From the NCBI GenBank assembly GCA_964576615.1, contig CAZNUU010000002.1, positions 27,428 to 91,427 on the forward strand: a stretch of 64,000 bases of DNA, read 5' to 3'. The position numbers and the translations under genes were made by a program. This stretch comes from an uncultured Candidatus Saccharibacteria bacterium (GTDB lineage Bacteria; Patescibacteriota; Minisyncoccia; Phycocordibacterales; DATDWN01). Below the pieces are notes generated by a model. It was not told the DNA's origin. It did not search any database and saw only the letters and a program-made list of their open reading frames with translations. Positions 7,611-8,683 of this stretch are shown in pieces (position 1 is the first letter of the stretch; each line of letters begins with the position of its first letter).

Positions 7611-7678
7611 AACATGATTCGACGAAATCTTAATAAATGCGAAGGACCCTTGATGTTATCTCGGGTCCTGGTTACGAA

Positions 7679-7978
7679 CTACTTGGCGTCGAGCTCCTGC
7701 TTGAGTTTCTTCACCTGCAAGCTCAGGGCTTCGATCGCCATGCCTATCGGCAACTCGATCATGCCGTCGCCGAACTGATCCTTACTCACGAGTTGCTGAG
7801 CTTCCGCGTTCACCGGAACGAGATCCCACTCGGCGGGAACTGAATCCCCTTCCTTGAGCTCGGGGAAGTCTTCCGGCGATTCGACGAACACGAATGTTTC
7901 AGACTTGTCCAACCGGCGCGCCAGTCCACCACCTTGAGTGGCAAAAACTGGGAAATCGTAATTCGGAAAATCGTCCAT
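7679..7978 (-). CDS. Hypothetical acidic protein with C-terminal coiled coil (GC-rich cassette 1)
   Basis: Start moved to MDDFPNYDF (SD GGAGGTGG) because the track start at 8056 lies inside a terminator hairpin. GC-rich codon usage. Confidence 0.35.
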   Translation of the reverse strand: MDDFPNYDFPVFATQGGGLARRLDKSETFVFVESPEDFPELKEGDSVPAEWDLVPVNAEAQQLVSKDQFGDGMIELPIGMAIEALSLQVKKLKQELDAK

Positions 7979-8036
7979 CTGGCCACCTCCATCTGCGCCA
8001 AGATTAGCACAGATATTATTACTTGTCAAATAGGAA

Positions 8037-8078
8037 AACCCCGTGCCGTGAAGCACGAGGCTCCACCTTACACGGGGT
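8037..8078 (-). terminator. Rho-independent terminator after the membrane-protein gene (accccgtg...cacggggt + T-run)
   Basis: GC stem with following T-run on the minus strand. Near-identical in architecture to the terminator at 10963-10991. Confidence 0.6.
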
Positions 8079-8458
8079 CAGAATTTCTTCACTGCGTTTG
8101 ATGCCTCGACGCTGTAGCCGCAGAGGAAGGCCAGGCCCAGAGCACGATCGCGGGCTTGATGCCAGCGGTGGATCTCTTTTTGGAGATCTTCCCAAGATTC
8201 GCTCCATCCAAGCATCTCCGTCATCCTGTCGCCAGGAAGATTGCCTTTCCGGTAGTTGTCGAAGTGGTTGTATGCCTGCCGGACTTTGTACTGCAGATCC
8301 TCCAGAACATCCGTGACCACAAGGTGAGGGAGATCCGGACCGTAAATCTTGCAGAACTCGATCGCGCAACGCTTTTCGAACGTTTTGCTATCGCGTTTCA
8401 AATACAGCGTGACAACAACCCCAAACACGAACCAGGCGGCAGCGATCAAATAGATCAT
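8078..8458 (-). CDS. Hypothetical small membrane protein (N-terminal TM, ~100 aa cytoplasmic domain), GC-rich cassette 1
   Basis: 126 aa, MIYLIAAAWFVFGVVVTLYL TM segment. Preceded by the conserved leader repeat C that ends in SD GATGAGGT. Confidence 0.5.
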   Translation of the reverse strand: MIYLIAAAWFVFGVVVTLYLKRDSKTFEKRCAIEFCKIYGPDLPHLVVTDVLEDLQYKVRQAYNHFDNYRKGNLPGDRMTEMLGWSESWEDLQKEIHRWHQARDRALGLAFLCGYSVEASNAVKKF

Positions 8459-8462
8459 ACGT

Positions 8463-8530
8463 TACCTCATCCAGGGTTCCAGCCCTGGCAACTCGCTGGG
8501 TCCTTCCCAACGATCTATCGGGACAATACC
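8463..8530 (-). promoter_or_regulatory. Conserved 5'-leader repeat family C, copy 1 (hairpin CAGGGCTGGAACCCTG overlapping SD)
   Basis: cctcatccagggttccagccctggcaactcgctgggtccttcccaacgatct. About 85% identical copy at 11373-11440, in the same position upstream of another small TM-protein gene. Confidence 0.6.
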
Positions 8531-8683
8531 ACTTTATGTATTATCAGTCAATATATTAGTTCAGAGGATTTTTGGTCGAGTTCAAGGCGCGAGTGAGCAA
8601 TGCGACCAAGCTGTATAGAAATACTGCGCGTGGAGCATGCGGAGCGAGCAACGCAGAAATCGGGCAAAAAGACCTGAACTAAT

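Follow-up and report, generated by a model that had tools for sequence, protein, structure and literature searches.

A conserved two-hairpin mRNA leader coupled to a rare family of small membrane proteins at the smc locus of a candidate phyla radiation bacterium

GGA in the loop of a hairpin is the recognition pattern of CsrA/Rsm proteins, and the leaders regulated by CsrA/RsmA, such as those of Bacillus subtilis hag, Escherichia coli glgC and Pseudomonas hcnA, combine several such motifs within a short leader, one of them at or beside the Shine-Dalgarno (SD) sequence. Other leaders, among them E. coli ompA and B. subtilis aprE and ermC, carry a stem-loop at the 5' end that stabilizes the message. 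To our knowledge, gene regulation in the candidate phyla radiation (CPR), or Patescibacteria, is almost unstudied, and the group has so far yielded very few conserved regulatory RNAs. Here we analyze a 64-kb stretch of DNA from an uncultured bacterium of this group (contig CAZNUU010000002.1; referred to below as the window, with an overall GC content of 41%), in which an smc-like gene is flanked by two units, A and B. Each encodes a small protein with one transmembrane (TM) helix behind a structured 5' leader. What is new at this locus is the coupling of such a leader to a family of small membrane proteins, which is real, conserved and rare. The explanation that we consider the best overall, with a probability of roughly 0.55, is that the units belong to a rare paralogous family carried as autonomous transcription units, that their structured leader would serve as an operator for a GGA-binding factor, and that they have a history of exchange between genomes. 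The features on which the argument depends are as follows.

8459-8517, minus strand: A1 leader; hairpin 1 at 8489-8517 (8 bp plus a 3-bp extension, loop AAGGA) and hairpin 2 at 8471-8488 (6 bp, loop CUGGAA)
11368-11426, minus strand: B leader; hairpin 1 at 11398-11426 (loop AAGAA) and hairpin 2 at 11380-11397 (loop CUGAAA)
8465-8468 (A1) and 11374-11377 (B), minus strand: SD core GAGG; the A1 copy is unpaired with respect to both hairpins
8078-8458, minus strand: A1 coding sequence, 126 amino acids (aa); N-terminal TM helix, helical domain, C-terminal DRALGLAFLCGY motif
11008-11367, minus strand: B coding sequence, 119 aa; N-terminal TM segment, helical hairpin 37-107, short C-terminal helix, DRAIGIGMINGYG motif
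8523-8551, minus strand: unit A promoter; -35 box TTGACT at 8551-8546, 17-nucleotide (nt) spacer, -10 box TATTGT at 8528-8523
11433-11461, minus strand: unit B promoter; -35 box TTGACA at 11461-11456, 17-nt spacer, -10 box TATTGT at 11438-11433
8030-8079, minus strand: A1 intrinsic terminator; 17-bp interrupted hairpin starting 1 nt past the stop codon, then UUUUCCU
10953-11009, minus strand: B intrinsic terminator; 21-bp hairpin starting 1 nt past the stop codon, then UUUUCCUUUUU

Structure and distribution of the leader

An earlier reading of the window made from the sequence alone (the sequence-only reading) had noted leaders of about 85% identity in front of both genes, and a direct repeat covering them (8455-8516 / 11364-11425) is indeed 84% identical over 62 nt. 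A degenerate 32-nt pattern matches exactly two sites in the window, with 0 expected from shuffled sequences. A covariance model built from six leaders gave 82 bits for the A leader and 81 bits for the B leader, and nothing else in the window scored above 14.4 bits; the weak matches at 38291-38344 (+) and 5166-5229 (-) both lie inside coding regions and were discarded as spurious. When the same model was run over 1.45 Mb of related loci (90 loci, numbered with the prefix L), it found family genes only, scoring between 22 and 96 bits in L017 and L082-L093 (79 in L088, 64 in L090, 46 in L089 and 22 in L092/L093). The leader was present in all 10 distinct family members with usable upstream DNA, a count from which L091 was left out because its contig begins 27 nt upstream of the gene. 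Family genes and their leader occupy four contexts: between smc and rnr, between rnc and smc, between khpA and trmD (L089) and between clpP and a tRNA synthetase gene (L092). Because it is found in four different contexts, the leader is tied to the gene and not to the site. The sequence-only reading had proposed to search the assembly for further copies; the window held none beyond the two, and those in related loci stand only in front of family genes. The leader patterns had no match in viral contigs, and one metagenome scan with the leader pattern returned only the organism already known as L017. Rfam 15 recognized only tRNAs in the window at gathering score and nothing over the leaders even at E <= 10. 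By these comparisons the leader is a family-specific structured RNA element that travels with its gene, and it is an undescribed candidate regulatory RNA.

The consensus structure was derived from a MAFFT alignment of nine leaders (a six-leader version was made as well), and RNAalifold agrees with it. Hairpin 1 has a stem of 8 bp, extended by 3 bp beyond a 1x1 internal loop, and is stacked directly on the 6-bp hairpin 2; both hairpins form in nearly all single-sequence folds. Across the nine-leader alignment 97.4% of cells are paired and 9 of the 17 pairs have changed on both sides, giving a covariation score that 0 of 500 column shuffles reached. In control structures with one arm shifted, the paired fraction falls to 21-48%. 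The most conserved positions are the unpaired ones, namely loop 1 (AAGGA), loop 2 (CUGGAA), the GAGUUGCC junction and the GGAUG before the SD. The AAGGA and CUGGAA loops occur in 7 of the 9 aligned leaders and also in the divergent one from L092, the most divergent of all, whose stems are shorter and of other sequence but whose loops still read AAGGA and C(C)GGAA(A). Compensatory changes across 9-10 leaders of other organisms support the earlier proposal of a conserved, structured leader that implies shared post-transcriptional handling. A conserved upstream mini-open reading frame (ORF) at GGAUG was also considered and dropped, as the AUG is absent in L089, L090 and L092 and the frame varies.

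Candidate modes of action of the leader

The sequence-only reading had a hairpin overlapping the SD and suggested that it sequesters the SD, possibly as a thermosensor. The overlap does not hold: the hairpin CCAGGG-CUGGAA-CCCUGG stops 2 nt before the SD core GAGG, without containing it, and the core lies outside hairpin 2 in the consensus structure, in minimum-free-energy folds and in folds of the leader alone. Hairpin 2 does end only 2-4 nt upstream of the core, within the 30S footprint, and when 40 nt of coding sequence are included the SD is mostly paired (predicted unpaired probability 0.06-0.48). The partners of the SD in these longer folds, on the other hand, are not the same in the different leaders and belong to the U/C-rich stretch that encodes the TM segment. 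Folding across temperatures likewise revealed no pairing partner common to the members and no consistent direction of response: predicted SD accessibility between 10 and 37 C was flat for A and L090, rising for B, L017 and L082, and falling for L083 and L088. As there was also no match to an Rfam thermometer or riboswitch, even at E <= 10, we consider it very unlikely that hairpin 2 works as a thermosensor or another kind of switch by sequestering the SD.

A different role, which we favor among the mechanisms considered but put forward tentatively, as possible rather than probable, is that the leader may be an operator for a trans-acting factor of the CsrA/Rsm type that recognizes GGA in hairpin loops. 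In such a mechanism, a dimer would bridge GGA sites among the AAGGA loop, the CUGGAA loop and, as a third site, GGA(UG) immediately before the SD; ribosome entry would then be blocked and translation repressed. Whatever the binder, the stem at or next to the predicted 5' end and the long 3' hairpin would stabilize the mRNA. The position of the -10 box would place the transcript start at the base of hairpin 1. The GGA count is 5-7 per ~60 nt in 7 of 10 leaders, compared with about 2 expected from composition (range over all leaders 2-7), and GGAUG lies directly 5' of the SD core or overlaps it in 7 of 10, where it is inseparable from the SD itself. The literature on CsrA in the CPR yielded one passing mention only, namely that csrA transcripts are among those of the highly expressed genes of ultra-small groundwater prokaryotes (PMC9938205).

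Several observations weigh against this operator and against the broader explanation of which it forms part. A six-frame search for CsrA, Hfq or FliW found none in the 64-kb window and 1.5 Mb of related loci, all of which represent one genomic neighborhood. Copy B has GAA in place of GGA in both loops and loop 2 of L089 reads UUGCAA, so the GGA motifs are not universal. The GGA-rich sequence near the start codon is in part just the SD. Only about 10 leaders are available, most of them from one closely related L017-type group, and few independent evolutionary events stand behind the covariation. The fold of the encoded protein matches generic helical hairpins, which say nothing on its function, and the route of gene transfer between related lineages that the explanation invokes is, at this stage, pure inference.

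The leader could instead act constitutively and only in cis, free of any dedicated trans-acting regulator, with the two hairpins protecting the 5' end from 5'-end-dependent ribonucleases and, through their SD-like AAGGA/GGA loops, serving as a ribosome standby site or enhancer. AAGGA is complementary to the usual anti-SD tail of 16S rRNA. The predicted transcription start, as judged from the -10 box and the alignment, falls 0-1 nt from the base of hairpin 1. Both hairpins, as described above, form in nearly every fold, an unusually long hairpin also closes the 3' end of the mRNA, and copy B retains the hairpins and not the loop GGAs, all of which would suit such a role. A pure stabilizer, however, needs only a stem, and in these leaders the loops, the A/G internal loop and the GAGUUGCC junction have been kept while the stems drift. 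This pattern points to sequence-specific recognition, and we regard the constitutive alternative as on balance unlikely, although it deserves serious attention.

Recognition might also be provided by the encoded protein itself, whose cytoplasmic helical hairpin, possibly as a Rop-like four-helix dimer, would bind its own leader and repress its own translation. The strict linkage of the leader to one protein family in four contexts is reminiscent of ribosomal-protein leaders and favors this idea. Against it, the two loops are not mutually complementary and would not form a kissing complex of the kind that Rop binds, and the protein is membrane-anchored. In addition, the proteins have diverged down to 12-30% identity and the RNA stands at 60-85%, which is not obvious for co-evolving partners. 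Autoregulation of this kind therefore strikes us as quite improbable.

The protein family, its transcription units and the gaps around smc

Used alone as queries, A1 and B each found only themselves among 5.8 billion clustered proteins. Homologues were reached by way of the gene in L017, found by tblastn of related smc loci, followed by profile searches. The L017 gene encodes 128 aa, lies just 3' of smc and matches B (E = 8e-10) as well as A1 (E = 6e-5). Profile searches then yielded proteins P0004-P0006, and an exhaustive HMMER search of 1.84 billion representatives, in which 11 proteins reached E <= 0.001, yielded P0007-P0013; P0003 and P0004, which came from the indexed search only, raise the family total to 13. 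All members identified so far are from CPR bacteria of the Parcubacteria/Paceibacteria type. Direct similarity between the two proteins of the window is barely present: BLASTP aligned only their C-terminal 37 aa (22% identity, E = 3e-4), and in the family alignment they are 12% identical, compared with 85% for their leaders. Their homology is established because intermediate family members link them, and with it the paralogy that the sequence-only reading had proposed. One subfamily comprises A1, P0011 and P0013, which have a common xxRRDSRTFxQR segment after the TM helix, and the other comprises B, P0009 and P0010, with a common WxPYIPxLR segment. Based on these alignments, A1 and B are anciently diverged paralogues, one from each of two old subfamilies.

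After three mis-called starts have been trimmed, the members are 116-135 aa long. Each begins with a short N terminus, after which come a single long hydrophobic stretch, basic residues and a helical region; all carry the motif (K/R)xxRxDRAIGvAFxxGxG at the C-terminal end. The single N-terminal hydrophobic helix in each of the two window proteins (126 and 119 aa) agrees with the original prediction. The trimmed entries are the public gene calls P0002 (147 aa), P0005 (179 aa) and P0013 (142 aa), which start too far upstream and translate through the leader, as in '...SQGRTLWVAESGNSDGGF-MDFQF...'; the conserved position of SD and AUG reveals their true starts. AlphaFold2 modelled B from a 13-sequence alignment with a predicted local distance difference test score (pLDDT) of 85, as an antiparallel helical hairpin (37-107) followed by a short helix (111-118), and beyond about residue 41 the blocks of 10 residues have means of 88-98. 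For A1, a model based on 6 sequences came out entirely helical, with a pLDDT of 69. By the positive-inside rule the C-terminal domain would be cytoplasmic. Searches of Pfam, NCBIfam, PADLOC, PHROGs and PDB returned no significant profile or fold match for the family proteins, and the fold-search matches were to generic helical hairpins only. Our best guess is that the protein is a membrane-tethered coiled-coil adaptor or oligomer and not an enzyme. The family of small bitopic membrane proteins to which it belongs is, in any case, rare and previously undescribed.

Each of the two genes is an autonomous monocistronic unit with its own promoter, a two-hairpin leader of ~58 nt, a strong SD and a long-hairpin terminator. 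The promoters of units A and B are sigma-70-like, TTGAC(A/T)-17-TATTGT, and the -35 box of unit B immediately adjoins the rnc stop codon. A TTGAC(A/T) -35 box with a 17-nt spacer was also read by eye 5' of the family genes in L017, L082, L083/L085, L089, L090 and L092. Terminator folding gave -27.3 kcal/mol (z = -4.7) for A1 and -33.7 kcal/mol (z = -6.9) for B. The A1 terminator is related in sequence to those of unit B, L089 and L090, and the similar terminators noted earlier behind both genes are in fact related, very stable hairpins followed by a U tract. Their duplicated 5' arm CCYCGUG was considered as an alternative-pairing switch, an idea that was dropped once folding showed it to be part of one long hairpin.

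A toxin, holin or addiction role had been suggested for these small membrane proteins. The layout is moron-like, with a promoter and terminator of its own and a GC content unlike that of the host, between conserved genes; the protein is small with one TM helix; and the distribution is patchy. At 116-135 aa with a soluble domain of ~90 aa, however, the proteins are far above the size of typical type I toxins (<60 aa). No antisense promoter-like site was found in unit A or B by a consensus scan, and no conserved partner gene adjoins the family gene. Searches gave no phage match, no consistent PHROG match and no PADLOC match, nor was there any match to the family protein or to the DNA of block A in phage genomes; the leader is absent from the viral contigs searched. 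The neighbors (rnc, smc, rnr, khpA, trmD, clpP and a tRNA synthetase gene) are housekeeping and not prophage genes. The suggested role accordingly found no support, including in similarity to phage or defense genes, and we judge it highly unlikely that the units are a selfish or phage-derived module, be it a type I toxin, holin, superinfection-exclusion or addiction gene.

The remaining features around the two units are listed here.

8684-10933, minus strand: smc-like gene, 749 aa, between units A and B; outside the family
7643-8029, minus strand: unit A2; promoter TTGACA-17-TAATCT at 8029-8001, SD GGAGGTGG, ORF at 7679-7978, terminator hairpin at 7643-7669

The L090 ortholog of the smc-like gene carries PF02463 SMC_N. 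Core genes around the units are ordered rnhB, a Nudix gene, nusB-Nudix, rnc, smc and convergent rnr, followed by rpsP, khpA and trmD. This order, together with the relatives of the locus, marks the genome as one of the Parcubacteria/Paceibacteria, similar to Zambryskibacteria. The GC-rich blocks reported on both flanks of smc are real (52-56% compared with 41% overall): GC content is 53-56% in windows inside 7650-8400 and ~52% in 10950-11400, and the third-position GC content of A1 is 0.66, compared with about 0.3-0.4 in nearby core genes. Block 7630-8600 had been taken for one cassette, a view that stands for the A1 unit and fails for the remainder, which is a second, independent ORFan unit, A2. 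Its ORF of 99 aa has no TM helix and no leader and is not a family member; it had no Pfam or PHROG match and no tblastn match in 80 related loci. A TATAAT-like box 7-12 nt 5' of the smc ATG, without an SD, was observed in the window (10934-10955) and, where the gap between rnc and smc is short, in five of the relatives inspected, namely L013, L014, L024 and L070 and, as TATACT, L029; several relatives have the form ttTGtTATAAT or similar. This layout suggests a leaderless or nearly leaderless smc mRNA. In the window this TATAAT...ATG upstream region of smc follows directly 3' of the B terminator, so that unit B has the stop codon of rnc on one side and the native upstream region of smc on the other.

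Units A and B resemble each other only in promoter-proximal DNA, leader and terminator, and the resemblance stops at the start and stop codons. A recent duplication that included the smc flanks, which the sequence-only reading had named as refuting its view, is not what is found: identity between the coding sequences is only 12-22%, and either subtype has nearer kin in other genomes. The earlier idea of a mobile or duplicated module is partly supported, with a patchy distribution (1 of 80 related species at this locus) and four contexts. That similarity begins and ends exactly at the coding-sequence boundaries would also be expected if the flanks were recombination substrates or homogenized DNA without any RNA-level function, either as a generic cassette like the promoter early stem-loop (PeSL) elements or through simple gene conversion. 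The A and B leaders are, moreover, mutually closest (85%), though the A1 protein is closest to that of L089 (33%); leaders closer than the protein tree predicts are a weak hint of concerted evolution within the genome. The excess within-genome similarity is nevertheless no more than about 3 nt of 53. ORFs of many unrelated kinds lie next to PeSLs (PMC2839356, PMC4122927), and this leader precedes one family only, in the window and in the related loci. Compensatory changes and loop conservation across organisms also show selection at the RNA level, and an explanation by generic cassettes or gene conversion is in our view scarcely credible.

The smc loci of 80 related species were compared, and synteny was conserved throughout. 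The gaps ranged from 22 to 3531 nt between rnc and smc and from 0 to 3476 nt between smc and rnr, and in related genomes can be as short as 22-70 nt at these sites. They hold unrelated fillings, with 321 of 390 gap ORFs (82%) being singletons. The few recurring gap families include a pilin-like protein and small helix-turn-helix-like proteins. The two gaps are variable hot spots and behave like insertion sites within a core-gene block that is rigid elsewhere. In closer AT-rich relatives they are often GC-richer than the core genes, and several relatives with the same synteny have core genes of 51-62% GC. In AT-rich hosts the family genes exceed the GC content of the host by 4-12 points; in the 55%-GC host of L092 they do not. 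The units may have come into the AT-rich genome from relatives of higher GC content, by an exchange in which the conserved core genes on either side recombined. We noticed no recombinase gene or terminal repeat beside the units, although no systematic search for them was made.

A 146-aa Nudix gene between rnhB and nusB (13569-14009) is 53% GC in the window, and its syntenic homologues (26-38% identical; L002, L003, L006, L008, L010, L012, L015 and L067) are 4-11 GC points above their own loci. Because these syntenic homologues are also GC-rich, elevated GC content is a lasting property of the accessory genes of this clade and not only a trace of recent transfer. Recent horizontal transfer as the sole cause of high GC content is weakened accordingly, and a high GC content by itself gives no date for the acquisition. 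In L083 (1310-1355, and also in L084-L086), a segment of ~46 nt that resembles the 3' end of rnr and is 83% identical to L082 1209-1254 sits between a 67-aa ORF unit and the promoter of the family gene. It shows that the junction was duplicated on insertion of one unit and may be a footprint of the insertion mechanism.

The window contains further GC-rich islands at 4112-4463, 13478-14054, 14557-15442, 18988-19641, 21047-21674, 28858-29439, 33972-34784 and 37551-38910. They lie between AT-rich core genes and are 49-54% GC as a whole, locally up to ~59%, compared with 41% overall. Those inspected (4173-4415, 19381-19623, 21159-21668, 29006-29383 and 37592-38110) each resemble an independent unit, in which a promoter-like TTGAC box precedes a short ORF and a hairpin terminator follows it. 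The encoded proteins include one of 169 aa whose N terminus resembles a ClpX-type zinc ribbon (21159-21668), a membrane protein of 172 aa (37592-38110) and a TM protein of 125 aa (29006-29383). None of the other GC-rich islands of the window has the leader. A broader possibility, which we consider improbable, is that the two-hairpin leader represents a CPR-specific class of cis-regulatory RNA answering to a factor or signal still to be named, carried in a recombinase-free cassette that spreads among Parcubacteria by uptake and flanking-gene recombination, with the GC-rich islands of the window being products of the same process.

Two dispersed repeat families were also observed. The first, an intergenic repeat of ~125 nt, occurs in three copies that are 88-89% identical, at 3140-3262 (+), 7510-7632 (-) and 35520-35645 (+). 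It folds into a long outer stem, in which 10 pairs have changed on both sides among the three copies, around a nearly invariant GC-rich core of three hairpins, and it had no Rfam match at gathering score. One copy adjoins block A on its left, and DNA related to the repeat is present 3' of the family gene in L083/L084. This repeat could be a small RNA gene or a structured repeat resembling a miniature inverted-repeat transposable element. The second family (3291-3326 / 30432-30467 / 62058-62095 and 3267-3372 / 62014-62119) contains a segment of 36 nt whose copies at two distant sites are 100% complementary; the segment is itself partly palindromic (GAGCACGAGGAATTTTTCAGCAGAAAAATATCCGTG).

Comparison with known systems

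A leader with covariation that is tied to an orphan membrane-protein family offers a handle on post-transcriptional control in the CPR. The locus also illustrates how accessory genes reach streamlined CPR genomes as single, self-sufficient transcription units placed in a few variable gaps. The family itself is very rare (about a dozen organisms), and its reach is limited unless the leader represents a broader mechanism.

With respect to the encoded protein, the resemblance to bitopic coiled-coil or helical-hairpin proteins (ATP synthase b, the RipA coiled coil, Rop and tubulin cofactor A) is generic to the fold. These proteins have no significant sequence relationship to the family and no counterpart of its DRAIGxAFxxGxG motif. 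Phage morons are likewise single genes with their own promoter and terminator and an odd composition, set between conserved genes, and often encode small membrane proteins. In contrast, the units described here lie in a cellular core block (rnhB-nusB-rnc-smc / rnr-rpsP-khpA-trmD) and not in a prophage, and had no phage homologues in the collections searched.

At the level of the RNA, CsrA/RsmA-regulated leaders have in common with these units several GGA motifs in a short leader, two of which are displayed in short-hairpin loops, with a further GGA, here inseparable from the SD itself, at or beside that sequence; the site spacing of about 8-24 nt found here could be spanned by a CsrA dimer. 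The A(A)GGA loop is similar to the BS1 hairpin of hag. The leaders of this family differ in that their natural variants B and L089 are without loop GGAs and the search of this neighborhood found no csrA gene, and in having a fixed two-hairpin architecture with a conserved junction, in front of one gene family, instead of loose sites. The stabilizing stem-loops of ompA, aprE and ermC correspond in having a stable hairpin <=1 nt from the (here predicted) 5' end and an accessible SD downstream, and in the present case a strong 3' hairpin ends the message as well. Stabilizers of that kind are, however, usually without loop conservation across species or restriction to one protein family. Finally, in the PeSL cassettes of T4-type phages, a conserved promoter and terminator surround divergent small ORFs between core genes, in hyperplastic regions where short homologies serve modular exchange (PMC2839356, PMC4122927). 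The units flanking smc share this arrangement and depart from it in two respects: they carry one protein family only, and the 5' part of their conserved flank is a transcribed, structured RNA.

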